From assembly GCA_951406725.2 (NCBI GenBank), contig OX597815.1, forward strand, positions 147,312,001-147,376,000: a DNA stretch of 64,000 nt, in the 5' to 3' direction. The number at the start of each line of letters is the position of its first letter. The stretch's first letter is position 1. The position numbers were made by a program, and so were the translations under genes. Below the pieces are notes generated by a model. That model was not told the origin of the DNA. It made no database searches and worked only from the letters and a program-made list of their open reading frames with translations. Below are positions 6,140-54,448 of this stretch, piece after piece. Source of the stretch: Octopus vulgaris (Eukaryota).

Positions 6140-6350
6140 ACGGGAAGCTTTATGAAAATAAACAAAAGACGAAGGCAGGTGGAGTACAAACAAACAATTG
6201 TATTAGTATGGCGCTCAAGAATATAAATAAAACAAGTCTTTTACGTTTCGAGGCTACGCTCTTCAACAGAAAGATACACAGAAAAGAAACACGGAAAGAA
6301 ACAAGGAGAAAAAAACATGCGTGCTGAAGCTAGCGATTCAACATGGCGAA
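6140..6350 (-). mobile_element. Short TA-flanked repeat family with HHR-like core (other copies 26205-26322 +, 38960-39145 +)
   Basis: Shared GAAGAGCGTAG(C/G)CTCGAAACGT...CTAATACA...CTTCGTCTTTTGTT among three copies. No tRNA head. Confidence 0.7.
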
Positions 6351-6369
6351 ATATATATATAACATACAT

Positions 6370-6429
<60 letters not shown>

Positions 6430-6974
6430 TATGTAGGTCAGACGGGAAACGCACTATTAGAACGCTCACCTGTACACCGGCAACAGATTAGAGACCCAGA
6501 GGTCCGTCAGATACCTTTGAGTAACCACCTAGCAACATGTGGTCGGAAAATATATATAATATTTCCATTCTACAAATTACACAGCCCAAGTGAAATCGAG
6601 AGGAAAATCAGAGAAAAGAATTTTATTGATAAATTCGAACCCAAGCTAAATAAGCAATAATAATAATACTTAGAGGTATTACTTCCACTGCTACGACCAT
6701 GACCACTAACAACAACAACAATACTAAAGGTGATCAAGACGAAGATAGCAGGAAAATTATCTTATTTAGGGTTAAAAGTTCTATTGCCACCACCATCACC
6801 ACTAGCAACAATAATTAAGGTGCTGACAATGATGATGATGACAATTGAAATATAAAAATATAAAAATCTCTGACAAAGGATATTTACAACATTTCTAAAA
6901 ATAACCCAACAATTGCTGCTTCGGCCAGGGTCAAGATACAGGACTCTTGACCTGTCCAACAAAGCGTGATGCCT

Positions 6975-7095
6975 AAACCAATCAGCTCAACCAACCAATC
7001 AGCTTAAGTAATTGAGTGATACTACACACTGATTGGTCAGAATACAGTTTGCAAAACCTAGCACTCTGGAGCCTACCCAGCTGTATTTATAGCAC
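6975..7095 (+). promoter_or_regulatory. Putative Pol II promoter in pLTR (CCAAT boxes + TATA-like)
   Basis: CCAATCAGC twice, CTGATTGG once, then TATTTATAG about 70 bp before the ribozyme. Repeated at +4271. Confidence 0.45.
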
Positions 7096-7154
7096 AGAAT
7101 CACTCATCTTGCTACAGTCAAAAATTGTGAAGCATGACTGTCAACACTACTACA

Positions 7155-7199
7155 TGAACCCGAAGATTGCAGAATTCAATGCATGAAAGTACTAGTTCA
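7155..7199 (+). ncRNA. Minimal type I hammerhead ribozyme (5' pLTR)
   Basis: TGAAC-CCGAAGA-T TGCA gaattcaa TGCA T-GAAA GTAC TA-GTTCA. Stem I TGAAC/GTTCA, palindromic stem III AGTACT, variant U4C. Confidence 0.8.
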
Positions 7200-7404
7200 A
7201 TCAGAATGAATATTTAACATTCTACTATTTCATTTTATTTTATTCAATTATAATATATTATCTTATAATATATCATTATAAGATTGTAAATAAAACGTGA
7301 AAATCAGACAAGGTTGGAATTCTTTTTATTAATATATTCTTCTATACACAATCACACACCCCCATATATATATATATCTATATTCCTATTGTGTATATGC
7401 CAAC

Positions 7405-8697
7405 ATGTCTGGAAAGCAACAAACAAAATTAACAGAATCCGAAAGAATTCTAATGGAAATTTCATCGAAATTATCAACACTCATCACGATGATTGACACA
7501 CAATCCTCTATTTTAAAGGAAATAGAAAAACAGTCTACAGACGGAAAACTTGGAAATGAACACATAAACTCTGAAATTAAGAATTTAGCTGAAATGATAC
7601 CAACAATTATAAAATCTACAAGAGAAAGCCTACCACAACCTCCTTGGATGTCAGAAATAAACGAAAGAAATCTGGAAAAAGAGGCACACCGAAAAAGAGA
7701 AGAGATACAGAAGACATGGAAAAAACTCCTTAACATAAGAAAACAAAACTTCTGGAAGGCATATAAATGCGAAAAATATGCTGAAATACATTCGAAATGG
7801 ATATCTTTAGCGGCACCCATACTTCCTCGGAAGTACCTAATTAAAGAAATTGCAGGAGAACCAGAGGAAGAAACTAAACTTCGATGGGACCTTAGTTTGA
7901 TAAAATTCAGGACCGACATCTCCATTACCCTGTCTAAACAATCCCGCTACAAAGCCAAATACGAAGCTATCGATGATCAAATCAGAGATGAAATATCCAA
8001 ACTAACGACCGGCAATATAGCAGAAAAAATGCGAGAACTATGGATCAGAGATATCTCAAAAGAAGAAAGCAGATCAAGAAAGTTTTGGCAGCGGAAACAA
8101 TTATTTCTCGACAAATATGCTACAAATTACGGTAAAGACACCAGAACTCCGAGAAATAGCATTAAAAGTGGACAACCTCACCAACGCAACATACACCAGA
8201 ACACGTGGCAACATGAACACCCGTTTCACCACGAATCGAAGACGAACTACGGTAAGAACTCTTCCCATTTTGTATGCAAACACCCTAATGCACACAACAT
8301 GAACAAAAAGCACAAACAAAATAGATATTGTTTTGAACAGACCATTAGCAGTAGAAATAACAGGAGATCATTTTCAAGACCTCAACAGAGATTACCCACA
8401 AGAAACTGGACAAAAAACCGATCTAGATCTAGAAGTAAACCCAGATCATTTCTCCAGGTGGTTAAAAACAATGCTAACAAGAAATTGAAAAGTAGCATAC
8501 ATAATACCAAAAACAAGACAGAAAACATAACGAAACCAAGTAAAGTACCACAACCAAAACGCAAAATTCATCAAGCAAACATCAACAGGAATATAAATCA
8601 TAACCAGAAAAAAATCCATTTTTTTACGTCAGGACAACAAACACCGGAGAAAGAAAAAATCCAAGAGGAAACATACCCCAAACAACTGAACGTATAG
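7405..8697 (+). CDS. PLE ORF1, 430 aa, function unknown (helical N-half, basic RS-rich C-half)
   Basis: Long non-repetitive ORF with a good start context (GCCAACATG) just after the 5' pLTR. K/E/L/I-rich N-terminus and RSRSRSKPRS-containing basic C-terminus. No domain recognised. Confidence 0.8.
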   Translation: MSGKQQTKLTESERILMEISSKLSTLITMIDTQSSILKEIEKQSTDGKLGNEHINSEIKNLAEMIPTIIKSTRESLPQPPWMSEINERNLEKEAHRKREEIQKTWKKLLNIRKQNFWKAYKCEKYAEIHSKWISLAAPILPRKYLIKEIAGEPEEETKLRWDLSLIKFRTDISITLSKQSRYKAKYEAIDDQIRDEISKLTTGNIAEKMRELWIRDISKEESRSRKFWQRKQLFLDKYATNYGKDTRTPRNSIKSGQPHQRNIHQNTWQHEHPFHHESKTNYGKNSSHFVCKHPNAHNMNKKHKQNRYCFEQTISSRNNRRSFSRPQQRLPTRNWTKNRSRSRSKPRSFLQVVKNNANKKLKSSIHNTKNKTENITKPSKVPQPKRKIHQANINRNINHNQKKIHFFTSGQQTPEKEKIQEETYPKQLNV

Positions 8698-10931
8698 ATC
8701 CTAAAATAATTAATTTATCAAAAAGAGATCTTGACAATGATGAAATCCAACTTCTGTCAAAAGGACTGAAATTCACACCTACACCAACAGCCAACCACCA
8801 AGAATTAAAGGAGGATATCCAAAAATTCTGTCGAAAATTACGACTTGTAGAATTCTTCGCTAACAAAAGTAATGAGATTGATGAATCCCTAGTAAGGAAT
8901 AAATCAAATTTCACCCCACCAAAAGGAAGAAATAACTACCTTGACCAATACATTGATATCCTGTCTAAATTTCCCCTTAGACGCAATACCAATGTTAGGC
9001 CAAACATTAGCAAATCAGAGATGTCTGCATGTAAACGTATACAAAACGATCAAACAATAATAATTAAACAAGCAGATAAAGGTGGTGCAATTGTTATTAT
9101 GGATACCGAATACTATAAGGATTTGGTTGAAGACCAACTGAAGGATACAACCTTCTATTGTGAAATACCCGCAAATATAGACCACCACATCATGAAAAAG
9201 ATCAACAACCTGATTTCAACACACCACAACTCACTTACGGATAATGAAAAAGACTACATCACCAATTTTGAACCAAAACCCAGCAACTTCTACGGCTTAC
9301 CAAAAATACACAAATCAAAAAACATTCAACAGGCAGTAAAAGAACAAGAAAGTGAGTACATAAAATTATTACATCTAAAAGACCTAAAACTTAGACCTAT
9401 TATAGCTGGTCCAGCATGCCCTACACACCGTCTAAGCAATTTTATTGACATTGTTTTGAAACCACTATGTACTTACATACCAAGTTTCATCAGGGATGAC
9501 ATCGACTTCCTGTCCCATCTTCCCAAAACAACAGAAACAAATTCAGTTTTACTAAGTTTTGATGTGGTAAGCCTCTACACCAATATTCCACACGATTTAG
9601 GAATAAAGGCGATTAAATACTGGTTAGAAAAACATAGAGAAGTGATTCCCAGCAGATTCACAGTGCCATTTATATTAGACACAGTCAAACTTATTCTAGA
9701 AAATAACACATTCTTCTTCAATGGAAAGAATTACATCCAAATTAGAGGCACGGCGATGGGAACGAGGTTTGCTCCCGTTTACGCCAACTCTGTAATGGGA
9801 TACTTAGAAGAACAACTCTACCAAGAGGTGGAGGTAAACTATGGCACTGGATTTAGAAAGTATATTGAAAAGGCATGGAAGAGATACCTAGACGACTGTT
9901 TCATAATCTGGACAGAATCTCTAAATACTCTGGAAGAGTTCAATATCCTCCTGAACAACCTACACCCATCTCTCAAATTTACAAAGGAGATGAGTAGTAC
10001 CAAATTACCATTCCTGGATATAATGGTAATTAAAAAAGACACCACCATCACCACAGATATATACTATAAACACACAGACACACATCAATACCTAAATTTT
10101 AAGTCGTGCCATCCACCACATACAAAACGTAACATCCCATACTGCCTAGCCAGAAGAATTTGTACTATTGTAGAAGATGCAAATATCAGGAACAAACGCC
10201 TAATAGAACTAAGAGAATTTTTGCTCAAACAAAAATACCCATCTCTACTTATAGAAAATGGCATACAGCGGGCTATAAAAATACCTATACAACAACTTAG
10301 GACAACCCAAGGAAGAGGAAAACAAGAACAAGTCATACCATTCATAGTGACACACAACCCATGTCACCAGAATATCTTCAACATTGCCAAAGTAAACCTA
10401 CCAATCATTGCCCAAAGTAATGAATTAAAAGACATAATCAAGGATCGAGCTATGGTGCTTAGTAAAAGACAGCCTAAAAACTTGAAAACATTACTAACAA
10501 AGGCAAAATTTGACCTCAGCAACAAAGACCAAACATTCACGGTATCTAAATGCAATGATAGCCGATGTGGCACATGCCAATTCATACATACCGGTCAATA
10601 TATAAACACAAAAACCGGGAAAATATTCACAAACGCGAATATGAACTGCAAAAGCAGAAATTTAATTTACTGCATCAAATGCCCAAATTGTGAAGAAATA
10701 TATGTAGGTCAGACGGGAAACGCACTATTAGAACGCTCACGTGTACACCGGCAACAGATTAGAGACCCAGAGGTCCGTCAGATACCTTTGAGTAACCACC
10801 TAGCAACATGTGGTCGGAAAATATATATAATATTTCCCTTCTACAAATTACACAGCCCAAGTGAAATCGAGAGGAAAATCAGAGAAAAGAATTTTATTGA
10901 TAAATTCGAACCCAAGCTAAATAAGCAATAA
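8604..10931 (+). CDS. PLE ORF2: reverse transcriptase + C-terminal GIY-YIG endonuclease (open from 8604; first ATG at 9021)
   Basis: Manual translation shows the frame open from after TAA 8601-8603. Motifs: IINLSKRDL..EIQLLSKGLKFTPTP, KQADKGG, FYGLPKIHK, LRPII, SFDVVSLYTNIP, QIRGTAMG, RYLDD, LPFLD, SCHP..KRNIPY, Cys linker KCNDSRCGTC, and LIYCIKCPNC..IYVGQTG..R..H. Confidence 0.93.
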   Translation, partial: PEKNPFFYVRTTNTGERKNPRGNIPQTTERIDPKIINLSKRDLDNDEIQLLSKGLKFTPTPTANHQELKEDIQKFCRKLRLVEFFANKSNEIDESLVRNKSNFTPPKGRNNYLDQYIDILSKFPLRRNTNVRPNISKSEMSACKRIQNDQTIIIKQADKGGAIVIMDTEYYKDLVEDQLKDTTFYCEIPANIDHHIMKKINNLISTHHNSLTDNEKDYITNFEPKPSNFYGLPKIHKSKNIQQAVKEQESEYIKLLHLKDLKLRPIIAGPACPTHRLSNFIDIVLKPLCTYIPSFIRDDIDFLSHLPKTTETNSVLLSFDVVSLYTNIPHDLGIKAIKYWLEKHREVIPSRFTVPFILDTVKLILENNTFFFNGKNYIQIRGTAMGTRFAPVYANSVMGYLEEQLYQEVEVNYGTGFRKYIEKAWKRYLDDCFIIWTESLNTLEEFNILLNNLHPSLKFTKEMSSTKLPFLDIMVIKKDTTITTDIYYKHTDTHQYLNFKSCHPPHTKRNIPYCLARRICTIVEDANIRNKRLIELREFLLKQKYPSLLIENGIQRAIKIPIQQLRTTQGRGKQEQVIPFIVTHNPCHQNIFNIAKVNLPIIAQSNELKDIIKDRAMVLSKRQPKNLKTLLTKAKFDLSNKDQTFTVSKCNDSRCGTCQFIHTGQYINTKTGKIFTNANMNCKSRNLIYCIKCPNCEEIYVGQTGNALLERSRVHRQQIRDPEVRQIPLSNHLATCGRKIYIIFPFYKLHSPSEIERKIREKNFIDKFEPKLNKQ

Positions 10932-11632
10932 TAATAATACTTAGAGGTATTACTTCCACTGCTACGACCATGACCACTAACAACAACAACAATACTAAAG
11001 GTGATCAAGACGAAGATAGCAGGAAAATTATCTTATTTAGGGTTAAAAGTTCTATTGCCACCACCATCACCACTAGCAACAATAATTAAGGTGCTGACAA
11101 TGATGATGATGACAATTGAAATATAAAAATATAAAAATCTCTGACAAAGGATATTTACAACATTTCTAAAAATAACCCAACAATTGCTGCTTCGGCCAGG
11201 GTCAAGATACAGGACTCTTGACCTGTCCAACAAAGCGTGATGCCTAAACCAATCAGCTCAACCAACCAATCAGCTTAAGTAATTGAGTGATACTACACAC
11301 TGATTGGTCAGAATACAGTTTGCAAAACCTAGCACTCTGGAGCCTACCCAGCTGTATTTATAGCACAGAATCACTCATCTTGCTACAGTCAAAAATTGTG
11401 AAGCATGACTGTCAACACTACTACATGAACCCGAAGATTGCAGAATTCAATGCATGAAAGTACTAGTTCAATCAGAATGAATATTTAACATTCTACTATT
11501 TCATTTTATTTTATTCAATTATAATATATTATCTTATAATATATCATTATAAGATTGTAAATAAAACGTGAAAATCAGACAAGGTTGGAATTCTTTTTAT
11601 TAATATATTCTTCTATACACAATCACACACCC

Positions 11633-11648
<16 letters not shown>
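10694..11648 (+). repeat. 3' pseudo-LTR of the PLE (overlaps end of ORF2)
   Basis: Near-identical to 6423-7377 and runs into a long (TA)n tract. Confidence 0.95.
11426..11470 (+). ncRNA. Minimal type I hammerhead ribozyme (3' pLTR)
   Basis: Identical to 7155-7199. Confidence 0.8.
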
Positions 11649-11683
<35 letters not shown>

Positions 11684-11705
11684 TATATAACATACATAAC
11701 ATATA

Positions 11706-11781
<76 letters not shown>

Positions 11782-11787
<6 letters not shown>

Positions 11788-12247
11788 TGAATTGAAGAAA
11801 TGGAGTTGAACGAAGATTGAACAGAAATCGTTTTATTTCATTCTACACGTGTTTCGAAAGGCACAATTTACCAAATTCCGATTGAATAATGAGACCATAT
11901 TGTGTCTTTCTCTTCAGGAAGAAATAGGAAATCCGTTGGAAAAAACAAAAACAGAACAGAGGCGGAGCAAAACAAATCGAACTAGGCTCCTAAGAGCCCT
12001 TGGTAAATTGTGCCTTTCGAAACACGTGTAGAATGAAGTAAAACGATTTCTGTTCAATCTTCGTTCAACTCCATTTCTTCAATTCACTAATAATATTAAA
12101 ATTCAATTATCCGCACCAACGCACGGTTGCAACACCATATGGTTGTATCTCCAACCGTGCTGTCTTCTGCTGTGATTTTTGCTACCAAGGTATCGGTTAA
12201 ACTTTTGTTTAATCTGCAACAAGATTATTCATCTTTCTATTTCACAA

Positions 12248-12255
<8 letters not shown>
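11782..12255. mobile_element. Small non-autonomous fold-back element in (TA)n
   Basis: 93-bp inverted arms 11782-11874 and 12000-12092 (one mismatch), a ~160-bp unpaired tail on the right, an HHR, and (TA)n on both sides. Confidence 0.75.
11834..11926 (-). ncRNA. Type I hammerhead ribozyme in small fold-back
   Basis: Minus strand: TATTTCTTC-CTGAAGA-GAAAGACACAAT...ATTGTGCCTTTC-GAAAC ACGT GTA-GAATGAAATA. Confidence 0.8.
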
Positions 12256-18091: not shown

Positions 18092-18147
<56 letters not shown>

Positions 18148-18603
18148 ACACATACACACATACATACATACAAATATACATATACATATATATATATATA
18201 CAATCCAATACAGGCCCATTCCCTAATTTTAATTTTATTATCTTCATTTATTACTTTTGTTATCTTTGATCGCTAGGGCTAAGAATCCTGGCAATAGCTG
18301 CTTGTCCATTTGTCTGTCTACTAGAAGGCAAGTACTCATTCCCGCACTCACACTCATTAGCACGTACATTCACCCATTCGTACACTCATACACATACACG
18401 TACGCACGCGTTATATTCATACATACAAACATCTACATACGTTCACGTATATACACATACGTACTCGTACCTACAGATTCGTGTCTACACTTTAGGAGGC
18501 TAGTCTATACATATACACCAATAAATATACATATATATATATATATATATACCCGCATATACATACACACACACACATATATACTCCTACATACAGATAC
18601 ATA

Positions 18604-18661
<58 letters not shown>

Positions 18662-19166
18662 TACACATACATACACATACACACATACATATACACACAC
18701 ATACATACACATATATATACATACACAAACATATATACACACACATATATATACATACACACATACACACATACATACGTATACATACATACATACATCT
18801 ATACATCCATACTTACATGCATTTATACGCATACACACACCCATCTATATATATGTATATATATATATATATATATATACACACTCACACATACATATAC
18901 AAATCTACGCACACACATACATACATACACGTATACGCATACACGCACATACACATATACATGCGTACCCATACACGTGCACACACGCACGCGCATCCAT
19001 ATAAATACACACACACACATATATATATACACGTGTGCAAGCATACATACATACTCATACGCGCACACATACTTACAAATACATATATGCACACACTTAC
19101 ACACATATATATACATACACATATACATGCATACATACATATATGCATACATACACACACGCACTC

Positions 19167-19240
<74 letters not shown>

Positions 19241-19719
19241 ATGTATGCATAGACATGTATGCATGTATATGTGTATGTATATATATGTGTGTAAGTGTGT
19301 GCATATATGTATTTGTAAGTATGTGTGCGCGTATGAGTATGTATGTATGCTTGCACACGTGTATATATATATGTGTGTGTGTGTATTTATATGGATGCGC
19401 GTGCGTGTGTGCACGTGTATGGGTACGCATGTATATGTGTATGTGCGTGTATGCGTATACGTGTATGTATGTATGTGTGTGCGTAGATTTGTATATGTAT
19501 GTGTGAGTGTGTATATATATATATATATATATACATATATATAGATGGGTGTGTGTATGCGTATAAATGCATGTAAGTATGGATGTATAGATGTATGTAT
19601 GTATGTATACGTATGTATGTGTGTATGTGTGTATGTATATATATGTGTGTGTATATATGTTTGTGTATGTATATATATGTGTATGTATGTGTGTGTATGT
19701 GTATGTGTGTGTGTGTATA

Positions 19720-19779
<60 letters not shown>

Positions 19780-20238
19780 TATGTATCTGTATGTAGGAGT
19801 ATATATGTGTGTGTGTGTATGTATATGCGGGTATATATATATATATATATATGTATATTTATTGGTGTATATGTATAGACTAGCCTCCTAAAGTGTAGAC
19901 ACGAATCTGTAGGTACGAGTACGTATGTGTATATACGTGAACGTATGTAGATGTTTGTATGTATGAATATAACGCGTGCGTACGTGTGTGTGTATGAGTG
20001 TACGAATGGGTGAATGTACGTGCTAATGAGTGTGCGTGCGGGAATGAGTACTTGCCTTCTAGTAGACAGACAAATGGACAAGCAGCTATTGCCAGGATTC
20101 TTAGCCCTAGCGATCAAAGATAACAAAAGTAATAAATGAAGATAATAAAATTAAAATTAGGGAATGGGCCTGTATTGGATTGTATATATATATATATGTA
20201 TATGTATATTTGTATGTATGTATGTGTGTATGTGTAGG

Positions 20239-20281
<43 letters not shown>

Positions 20282-20669
20282 AGATATATGTGTATGTGCG
20301 TATGTGTGTGTAGATACGTATACATGTGTGTATAGGTATAAGTGAGAATCTCCTTATTTACCTATAACTCTATCCCCCCTTTTTTTATATATATATATTT
20401 ATATATATATATTTTTTATATATATATTTTTTTATATATTTTTTTATATATATTTTTTATATTTTTTATATTTTTTTATATTTTTTATATTTTTTATTTT
20501 TATTCTTTTATTTTATCTTTTTATTTTTTTATTTTTTATTTATTTTTTTATTTTTTTATTACCTTGACCACTCCCCCAAGTATGATATTTTGCGCTATGC
20601 CTACCCCCCAAAAAGTCCCCCACCACCACTCCTCTAAATGTATAAATGCTAATACAATTCTTGTTAAAT

Positions 20670-50270: not shown

Positions 50271-50351
50271 AAAAAGTTTAGTTGTGGGGTATCGTACGAG
50301 TGGGATTATATATGAAAAAAGGTTTGAAAATGCAATTTAAACGATGTTTAT

Positions 50352-50396
50352 TTACTTAACCGGTTTCACTCTTTGGTAAAAGATTGTCAAAAGTAA
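50352..50396 (-). ncRNA. Variant hammerhead ribozyme (left arm)
   Basis: Reverse complement of 51899-51943. Confidence 0.65.
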
Positions 50397-51898
50397 CATT
50401 GAATATTATGGGTTCAAAAAAGTTTTTTACATAATTGTCACATTGAATATTATGAATTCAAAAATGTTTTTTTATACATAATTGTCACATTACATGTATA
50501 AATATAGTATAAAAAAGTTCAATAGTGTGATGAGAATATTTGGAAAAATTGGCAGAAAAGAATAAAACAAATATATTATTGGAAATTTGGTTGCGTTAAT
50601 TATTGGTTGTCGCAAATTGTCACATTACATGTATATATATACAGTCTTTGGTAGAAAGGACATGTTAAAGACATAAGGAAGTGTAATAGTTTGGTGAGAA
50701 AGCTTGTAATATTGACAGAGAAAATTAAAATGGATATTTTAGACATCTCAGAATATTTTGAATCGAAGGCGAGAATTTGTTTTTTACTGACCTGTTTGTT
50801 TTAGCAGAAAAGTTGAATTGAGAGATCTAAAGATATGTACCCAGTTTGGTTTATACTTCCCCTTCAAGCATCAGTGATTTTGGGGTTATTGGGAGGTGAG
50901 TATGCGGGTGTGAATAGATGTGTCCGTGTGCCTGCTGGTCAGACAGCGTCTGTTTGTCACACACATATATACATACACACACAACAACAATACACACACA
51001 CACATAGTATACACACACACACCACATACACACAACACACACACACAGAACACACACACAGAACACACACACACACAACGCACCCACATATAAAATATAT
51101 ACACACATCACACAAATATAACATGTATTTATATATAATATACACACATATATAACACATACACACACAACACACACACACACACACACACACAACACAC
51201 GCACACATATATACATAATATAAATATCACACAAATACACCTAGCATATATATACATATATGTATGTGTGTATGTGGTGTGTGTGTGTATACTATGTGTG
51301 TGTATTGTTGTTGTGTGTGTATGTATATATGTGTGTGACAAACAGACGCTGTCTGACCAGCAGGCACACGGACACATCTATTCACACCCGCATACTCACC
51401 TCCCAATAACCCCAAAATCACTGATGCTTGAAGGGGAAGTATAAACCAAACTGGGTACATATCTTTTTTTCTCTCAATTCAACTTTTCTGCTAAAACAAA
51501 CAGGTCAGTAAAAAACAAATTCTCGCCTTCGATTCAAAATATTCTGAGATGTCTAAAATATCCATTTTAATTTTCTCTGTCAATATTACAAGCTTTCTCA
51601 CCAAACTATTACACTTCCTTATGTCTTTAACATGTCCTTTCTACCAAAGACTGTATATATATACATGTAATGTGACAATTTGCGACAACCAATAATTAAC
51701 GCAACCAAATTTCCAATAATATATTTGTTTTATTCTTTTCTGCCAATTTTTCCAAATATTCTCATCACACTATTGAACTTTTTTATACTATATTTATACA
51801 TGTAATGTGACAATTATGTATAAAAAAACATTTTTGAATTCATAATATTCAATGTGACAATTATGTAAAAAACTTTTTTGAACCCATAATATTCAATG

Positions 51899-51943
51899 TT
51901 ACTTTTGACAATCTTTTACCAAAGAGTGAAACCGGTTAAGTAA
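51899..51943 (+). ncRNA. Variant hammerhead ribozyme (U3-A8 core)
   Basis: TTACTT-TTGACAA-T CTTTT acca AAGAG T-GAAAC CG GTT-AAGTAA. 6-bp stem I, palindromic ACCGGT. Confidence 0.65.
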
Positions 51944-51981
51944 ATAAACATCGTTTAAATTGCATTTTCAAACCTTTTTTC

Positions 51982-52028
<47 letters not shown>

Positions 52029-52688: not shown

Positions 52689-53053
52689 AAGAGCGATGCC
52701 TTATAGAAATAACAGGGTAGGTTGCCAACTCTGCTCCATGGAGACATATGAAATTTTAAAGCATAAAAAAAATAGCTGTAAGACCTTCTAACTGTAAATG
52801 CTCTAATATCTACACAGCCTTTTTTTTTCTCTTATTACGCAAAAATAATAAATCTTTAGAGCGAGTTATTAATAAAATTTAGAGCGAGTTATAAACAGTA
52901 GCTGTAACACATCGTGACGTATATTTGCCATTTAAATATGGCTAACCCCTAAGGGTGGATGCTACTGTAGTTTGTAGCCCCAGGAGGACACCTCCCCCAG
53001 CTGGCTGTAGACACACGTTCTGTGCCCTATCAAATATTTATACACACACACAC

Positions 53054-53110
<57 letters not shown>

Positions 53111-53198
53111 ACATATAATTTAGGATAAAGTAATGTGTAACCAATCCGGCAATTATTCAAATATGAAACTAATAATATAATAATAATTTACACACATA

Positions 53199-53260
<62 letters not shown>

Positions 53261-53716
53261 TATGTGTGTAAATTATTATTATATTATTAGTTTCATATTT
53301 GAATAATTGTCGGATTGGTTACACATTACTTTATCCTAAATTATATGTACAATATATATAAAATAAATATAAGAGAGTGGTCACTATATTGATCACACTA
53401 GCACCAGTTAATCCAAAAGGTTTCAACCACGAAAAATACATGTTTCCCATGAAAGCCAGTACGACTGTTAGCTCACACGGACAGGGCAAATAAAAAATAA
53501 CAAAAATACAGATTATTTTGGGACAATTGTTTCGCTATTAATGAATTAAATGTAATATTACTTACAATAATCCATTTGTAGCTCTTCAGCCAAGACTATC
53601 TGGATGAAATCCACTCAATCACACGCCAGATTTTACCATAACGATAAATACGCGTGCGGTTCAATTGATTACATCGGACGTTATAATTCAAATGCCCCAA
53701 CCAATACAATATAAAT

Positions 53717-53759
<43 letters not shown>

Positions 53760-54448
53760 GTGTGTGTGTGTATAAATATTTGATAGGGCACAGAACGTGT
53801 GTCTACAGCCAGCTGGGGGAGGTGTCCTCCTGGGGCTACAAACTACAGTAGCATCCACCCTTAGGGGTTAGCCATATTTAAATGGCAAATATACGTCACG
53901 ATGTGTTACAGCTACTGTTTATAACTCGCTCTAAATTTTATTAATAACTCGCTCTAAAGATTTATTATTTTTGCGTAATAAGAGAAAAAAAAGGCTGTGT
54001 AGATATTAGAGCATTTACAGTTAGAAGGTCTTACAGCTATTTTTTTTATGCTTTAAAATTTCATATGTCTCCATGGAGCAGAGTTGGCAACCTACCCTGT
54101 TATTTCTATAAGGCATCGCTCTTCTAACTATTTCCCAATTAAGGTTATATTTAATATTATTATTTTTGAGTTCCCAGATCTTACTTGAAAGTGTGGTGCA
54201 ACCTGCTTTATGACGTAACTTAAATGAGGAGATATAGTTGCTAACTCTTCGTTTAAATTTTATAGTACAACCCAAATAAAAAATTTGCTTCTCAGTAGTT
54301 ATGGTACATTTATAGATTACTTTTTCTTGCTTATAATCACCCCAAATTATTTTATGGTTAATACCATAAAGATTTCTGGTGCATCTAAGTTAAGTACCAC
54401 ATTCATGTGAATTCATTGGAACTCACTTGAATCTTAATTGTTTTACTT

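Follow-up and report, generated by a model that had tools for sequence, protein, structure and literature searches.

Several features of the retroelement examined here have counterparts among Penelope-like elements (PLEs) and other systems based on reverse transcriptase (RT). Neptune elements share with it a GIY-YIG endonuclease that is C-terminal and carries CCHH, a CX2-5CxxC linker, tandem pseudo-LTRs (pLTRs) with an inverted copy, a tail, a hammerhead and (TA)n targets (PMC8557442, PMC3846280), and the killifish Neptune likewise has a separate upstream ORF (PMC12602865). However, the available text ascribes the TA bias of Neptune to the linker zinc finger and reports no element-encoded pad, marker base or stutter. 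(TA)n targets have also been reported for Naiad and Hydra, and microsatellite bias and tandem/inverted structures both count among the unanswered questions about PLEs for which an in vitro system is required (PMC8557442). The Poseidon element PAc of Anolis, given as the sole full-length PLE studied in vitro, resembles our element in that its RT starts internally at two neighboring points, which delimit a tail near the pLTR-ORF junction, and both strands are likewise cut and extended (PMC11167929). On the other hand, the PAc starts lie in a stem-loop that is AC-rich and shares no homology with the ATT cut site, whereas both starts of the present element lie on TA pads matching the (TA)n target. 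In the EN-minus elements Athena and Coprina, a short element-encoded repeat by the hammerhead, complementary to the target, assists attachment in a way similar to that proposed here, but these elements have no endonuclease and use telomeric overhangs, whereas ours combines an endonuclease with internal (TA)n (PMC8557442). Outside PLEs, a comparable pairing of RNA repeat and nicked target is found in L1 and Alu, whose poly(A) pairs with T-rich nicks, and in the microsatellite-targeting LINEs Waldo, Mino, Kibi, Koshi and Dong; retroelements can also seed microsatellites (PMC3812793). These elements differ in having a single 3'-terminal start and other enzymes, in contrast with the two internal starts and self-complementary target described below. 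TA targeting, tails and two starts have therefore already been published, whereas our literature search returned no article describing TA pads that a PLE encodes at its start sites. Telomerase, whose RT lineage is sister to that of PLEs, uses a short template with primer realignment.

The window, by which we mean the whole 64,000-nt stretch of Octopus vulgaris DNA analyzed here (contig OX597815.1), contains a young, Neptune-like Penelope element on the plus strand. This genome (2.8 Gb, TA-rich) has more than 800 of its pLTR ends; we counted at least 782 ends of the main variant and 31 matches to the pattern of the variant in the window. All 60 ORF2 copies scored were 99-100% identical, and such a number of near-identical copies suggests that the family is young. 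The 5' pLTR (6423-7377), which is a 5'-truncated upstream copy together with its tail, matches 10694-11648 except at two positions, and the 3' pLTR occupies 10694-11634. Each contains a TATA-like box at -30 of a likely transcription start (7084-7114 with the start at 7114, and a second copy from 11355 with the start at 11385), whose putative promoter role is suggested by a pile-up of segment 5' ends. CCAAT boxes are present at 6978, 6995 and 7032, and a minimal type I hammerhead motif is predicted from sequence and fold at 7155-7199 and again at 11426-11470. ORF1 (7405-8697; 430 aa) has no Pfam family and is related to ORF1 of the relative L251 (21% identity over 363 aligned positions, E value 2e-15), and an atlas search with ORF1 returned weak mollusc clusters without names and nothing else. 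ORF2 (8604-10931; 775 aa), whose named relatives are mostly molluscan, encodes the PLE RT with GxKF, DKG and YLDD motifs, a CX4CXXC linker (CNDSRCGTC, at residue 650) and, at the C terminus, an endonuclease of the GIY-YIG type (Pfam match at residues 687-773), with two cysteines within the endonuclease core of the translation. ORF2 overlaps ORF1 in the -1 frame (8604-8697), and in L251 and L254 a long ORF likewise overlaps the RT ORF. A T7 run in this overlap (8616-8628), which is a candidate -1 frameshift site, was kept in 59 of 61 matches (stored loci, partly overlapping), and the overlap is likely read via a programmed frameshift or splice.

As judged from its sequence features, the element is an endonuclease-bearing (EN+) PLE of the Neptune/Nematis type. 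It has the RT with GxKF, DKG and YxDD motifs, the C-terminal GIY-YIG domain with two cysteines inside the core, and tandem pLTRs with inverted 5' copies and an optional tail, which is 30-40 bp in EN+ PLEs and here comprises 26 nt and as many as 20 nt of pad in addition; the hammerhead motif in the pLTR is present according to motif and fold prediction. The CX2-5CxxC linker between RT and endonuclease fits either the Neptune clade, as defined in PMC8557442 (Craig et al. 2021) and PMC3846280, or the Nematis clade. The two overlapping ORFs depart from the canonical single ORF of EN+ PLEs; an optional frameshifted ORF1 is named for PLEs in the legend of Figure 1 of PMC8557442. Other clades were considered and rejected: Naiad/Chlamys elements have an N-terminal endonuclease, DKA and no canonical hammerhead, whereas our element has a C-terminal endonuclease, DKG and a hammerhead motif; the features of the Hydra clade (no CCHH, DKT and a CxCX5C linker; PMC8557442) are not matched; and Athena/Coprina elements lack an endonuclease and end in telomeric repeats, whereas the present element has one and ends in (TA)n across chromosomes.

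The original prediction started from the observation that the internal junction reads as a C run followed by (AT)7, whereas the 3' pLTR passes from its C run into a long TA tract. The sequence agrees: CCCCC (7359-7363) is followed by (AT)7 (7364-7377) and then by CTATATTCC, with the ATG of ORF1 at 7405, and CCCCC at 11630-11634 is followed by (AT)23 and further TA up to 11784. An (AT)7 run by itself is not evidence of anything, since such runs are common here (76 (AT) runs of at least seven units in the window alone), and the TA-rich genome made it necessary to compare copies, so that the evidence lies in fixed length and register. We examined 32 internal junctions, comprising the 30 best matches to the ORF1 start and two other loci, and found (AT)7 in 25, (AT)8 in six and a variant in one; an internal junction with (AT)17 was noted among the matches listed of the main variant. 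Genome-wide, 51 of 60 matches were internal junctions with (AT)7C. The C that follows (AT)7 serves as a natural tracer base, and (AT)7-C-TATATA was found at 154 genomic termini. In comparison, a C followed 9 to 15 units (seven later registers) in 10 matches at nine places, and the background frequency of a C interrupting TA was 2 in 4967 positions in distal flanks and 0 in 1283 in the window. An older G subfamily, whose ends start with GT, provided a further comparison, since a shorter internal pad was predicted before its junctions were looked up: all four internal junctions found had GT(AT)4-C or GT(AT)5-C, and six of seven single-register C-bearing ends had 4-5 units (L025, L026, L029, L043, L092 and one further match listed; L087, with seven units, was the exception).

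These results bear on a different account, in which the internal (AT)7 is leftover target and each pLTR represents a second insertion into TA upstream of a full copy. Since the family inserts into TA, some TA between tandem copies would indeed be expected, but genomic TA flanks ranged from 0 to >200 nt, whereas the internal run had seven or eight units in 31 of 32 junctions, was subfamily-specific and appeared together with its C at the 154 termini. We regard this account as extremely improbable; it is refuted for the individual insertions, although it may describe the ancient origin of the pad. The fixed internal length, the C tracer at ends and the subfamily-matched pad lengths show instead that the element itself serves as the template for the run at its termini, and thus (AT)7-C-TATAT (7364-7383) is an inherited part of the element, as the original prediction had held for its TA run.

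The same prediction had taken this run as the mark of the 3' boundary. A 3' end does lie there (site 2), but it is not the only one, as a second end site is located 26 nt upstream, at 7337/11608, on an (AT)3 pad (site 1: TTATTAATATAT, 7326-7337, with a copy at 11597-11608). Copies ending elsewhere, which had been named in advance as evidence against the idea, thus literally exist, yet site 1 has a TA pad of its own. Among the first 100 of 863 matches listed, 34 ended at site 1 and passed into TA, and 66 read on. From CCC, all of 100 matches listed entered an alternating AT-type run (nine internal and 91 terminal), one of the 91 terminal runs being (CTAT)n; both counts were made by eye, with an anchor further upstream for site 1. 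Both end sites finish in TATAT/TC. In insertions picked by their site-2 end, all 25 inverted arms with a visible outer end stopped at site 1. In L041 and L042, the main copy begins at site 1 and the far end consists of the inverted 26-nt spacer alone; together with the two end sites, this arrangement identifies the stretch between them (7338-7363, copy 11609-11634) as the PLE tail. At least 8 nt of TA were present within 12 nt of 67 of 79 far ends.

An inverted site-1 arm accompanied 17 of 35 pure TA ends versus 6 of 44 ends that keep the C (p=0.001; L106-L185 and L031-L040), a pattern as if two-ended priming favors pairing within (AU)7. Many copies consist of a 250-bp, SINE-like piece of the 5' UTR alone (7114-7363 and 11385-11634 in the window), and these pieces often form head-to-head pairs of 11385-11634 with 11385-11608.

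The 5' ends of segments gave some indication of the RNA. In total, 22 of 113 ends fell at 11384-11386, 30 nt past the TATA-like box, which suggests that the pads lie in the 5' UTR, approximately 220 and 250 nt from the start. None of the 113 ends was at the predicted hammerhead cut, and thus there was no sign of a cleaved linear template at that position; an Rfam search returned chance low-complexity matches and no hammerhead. As many as 29 of 46 C-keeping arms extended upstream of the likely start, which implies that tandem or read-through RNA, a circle or strand transfer is needed.

A comparison with relatives was based on 87 loci from metagenome and genome collections, 49 of which cover the endonuclease end; 16 have a detected hammerhead followed by at least 80 nt. 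Among relatives with at least 33% identity, a TA run of at least 6 nt was present past the hammerhead in 9 of 11 (2.4 expected from shuffles) and two such runs in 4 of 11 (0.36 expected), and three of five relatives below 33% had one run; this 33% cut was set post hoc, and part of the runs may represent target and not internal sequence. A stricter hammerhead screen gave 7 of 19 downstream versus 6 of 19 upstream, which was not significant (p=0.06). Two pads after the hammerhead were found in L255, L257, L263 and L332 and one pad in L251, L253, L254 and L267. By eye, the two pads of L255, L263 and L332 are 36-46 nt apart ahead of a following ORF, and L257 has a first pad and then (AT)6-CTCTATTTCC, which resembles the present element, at which point the contig ends. 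At the second end of L254, the internal copy reads TGTATTT and contains no TA run. The PLE contigs L331-L336 lie within bacterial MAGs, which is likely animal contamination.

Some neighboring repeats in the window were also recorded. A second hammerhead-bearing family is present at 6140-6352 on the minus strand (1813 candidates), and in most of 30 copies viewed its fixed 3' end enters an alternating run; this run is usually TA, whereas L208 has (AGAT)n and L206 has (CATA)n. A third family (11785-12250) lies in TA as two arms facing head to head and contains a motif resembling a hammerhead; the ends of the arms seemingly fall at different positions. Long inverted repeats at 50307-51988 (728 nt, 97%), 52821-53992 (273 nt, 100%) and 18092-20291 (690 nt, 93%) are possibly further two-armed insertions or MITEs.

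We propose that the 3' ends of a cut (TA)n tract pair with the two TA pads, 26 nt apart, and thereby prime reverse transcription, a reading to which we assign a probability of about 0.68. In this model, both strands of a genomic (TA)n tract would be cut by the endonuclease, and the 3' ends so released would each pair with one AU pad of the RNA and start reverse transcription; because (TA)n is self-complementary, either strand should be able to pair with either pad. One arm per site would produce head-to-head, two-armed insertions with an optional tail. A primer annealed to the 5 nt that follow the C would yield the C and exactly (AT)7, whereas one placed inside (AU)7 would give a pure TA run, and a primer that occasionally slips back before moving on would leave a doubled C or extra TA units. 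The target would be chosen mainly by the endonuclease, with pairing setting the register, and insertion would lengthen the tract modestly, part of the excess perhaps arising from read-through templates or later slippage. Of 46 C-keeping ends, 41 had seven units. Nine ends contained a second C at a distance of 4 or 6 nt beyond the first one, as compared with 154 with a single C, and only about 0.13 would be expected from background; the doubled C is most simply explained by a paired primer slipping back, which suggests primer realignment. Against pad pairing, the A-T pairs available at site 1 amount to just 6-7 nt, and RNAfold predicted that much of the 5' UTR (AU)7 is itself paired (mean 0.57); the second end of L254 points in the same direction.

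Alternatively, contacts between protein and RNA might determine the start sites with no need of pairing, as in Poseidon, while the endonuclease alone picks (TA)n, in which case the pads would be passengers or endonuclease self-sites that date from the origin of the unit by insertion into TA. Such an arrangement has a precedent in PAc, with its two internal starts and no homology (PMC11167929), and the CX4CXXC linker, a feature hypothesized to mediate TA bias (PMC8557442), is present here; the imperfect second pad of L254 and the weak result of the stricter screen of relatives also fit it. However, protein contacts alone do not readily account for both starts finishing in ATAT, for site-2 ends that occur in different registers, before as well as after the C, for the recurrence of pads in relatives at 33-49% identity, or for the nine doubled-C ends, which fit a slipping paired primer best. 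We therefore consider this explanation rather unlikely. That (AU)n pairing primes reverse transcription, as originally predicted, receives indirect support from the ATAT at both sites, the ends before and after the C and the doubled C. The accompanying claim that pairing would explain the targeting is doubtful, given the 6-7 nt of the site-1 pad, a CX4CXXC linker of the kind tied to TA bias and the TA at 67 of 79 far ends, and pairing is unlikely to be the sole cause of targeting.

It had also been suggested that insertion could extend TA tracts in a telomerase-like manner. We compared TA lengths in what remained of a set of 90 loci after removal of L032, which has a site-1 end, L143, which duplicates L139, L166, for which there was no alignment chain, and five loci below 97% identity. 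The median TA length was 51.5 nt for pure ends (n=36) and 24.5 nt after the C (n=46), and pure ends remained longer after subtraction of the 14-nt template share, with an excess of approximately 13 nt (p=4.6e-5), while left flanks were alike (21 and 18.5 nt, p=0.57). Run length showed no significant correlation with identity over a narrow range (Spearman +0.19, p=0.28), which gives no hint of longer runs in diverged copies. At the copy in the window, the insertion is flanked by a 28-nt duplication (6355-6382 and 11683-11710) whose core comprises 11 nt of non-TA sequence; the left copy of the duplication continues as (AT)25 up to the element (5' junction, 6355-6422), and the 3' junction (11635-11784) consists of (AT)23, AG, the right copy and more TA. 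If this duplication is read as a target-site duplication, the empty site would have had five units to either side of the core, and the filled site would hold at least 15 extra units at its 3' junction as well as 20 at its 5' junction. Similarly, approximately 215 nt of TA follow a 32-nt non-TA duplication in L133, and (AT)20 and (AT)10 lie between repeated element pieces in L011. Anchored duplications were rare and near the control (a core of at least 16 nt in 4.7% of loci versus 1.7% of random pairs), and this arithmetic therefore rests on few loci.

No empty allele of the insertion site in the window was seen. For L169, contigs without the element in three of four runs (X2, X4 and X5) stop 12-14 nt past the junction, before the TA tract, and their ends lie in sequence that is missing from the filled right flank, so that a target deletion is possible. 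L144 was considered as an rDNA insertion with paralogous empty sites and rejected, as the 28S rRNA sequence on its left is fused to the element and is not a target: at L144:503-957, a 76-bp copy has the 3' part of 28S rRNA attached directly at its 5' end, likely through an RT template jump onto rRNA. In the older subfamily, the ends of L027, L184, L178 and L092 enter (ATCT)n of 3 to >20 units, with no counterpart at the far flank where it was seen, L027 and L184 included. A tetranucleotide microsatellite born from a TATCTAT pad is possible; however, L027 and L184 are 90-95% identical, later expansion is possible, and long (ATCT)n ends are thus no proof of addition.

The length excess may have other sources, namely RNA reading through the TA flank of a parent copy, slippage after insertion or assembly error. 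Pairing could then be real without any repeat addition, a view that touches the extension step only and is compatible with the pairing model. Each 3' pLTR has a likely promoter followed by long TA, long pure dinucleotide runs are mutable (PMC3812793), and the contigs of the one empty site examined stop short of the TA tract, all of which agrees with such sources; on the other hand, the doubled C and the TA of L011 and L133 need synthesis during insertion, and no trend to longer runs in diverged copies was seen over the narrow identity range. We give this alternative somewhat less than an even chance. As for the suggested extension, the length excess and the presence of TA where the target seemingly had none speak for it, but the extra TA may have come from any of the sources above; repeat addition is plausible, and it is likely from the sequences compared that insertion lengthens the tract. 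Both here and in telomerase, repeats could be added from a short template when the primer realigns, whereas realignment in this element looks occasional (9 doubled versus 154 single C) and precedes copying of the element.

A broader interpretation, which we offer as no better than tentative, is that the 5' UTR of PLEs that target TA contains a small template of the telomerase type, that a single RNA bridges both ends of the cut (TA)n tract through its two AU pads, and that the RT, by realigning the primer, adds TA and at times ATCT units ahead of copying the element. Since the family is young, has many ORF2 copies that look intact and marks its priming site with a natural tracer base, it allows direct tests of pairing, of priming from two ends and of repeat addition. 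If repeat addition is true, PLE activity would be linked to the growth of TA microsatellites, and the sister lineage of telomerase would gain a telomerase-like step. If the broader interpretation is true as well, such PLEs would actively produce TA microsatellites in genomes of this kind and would offer a living model for how a retroelement RT could have become telomerase.
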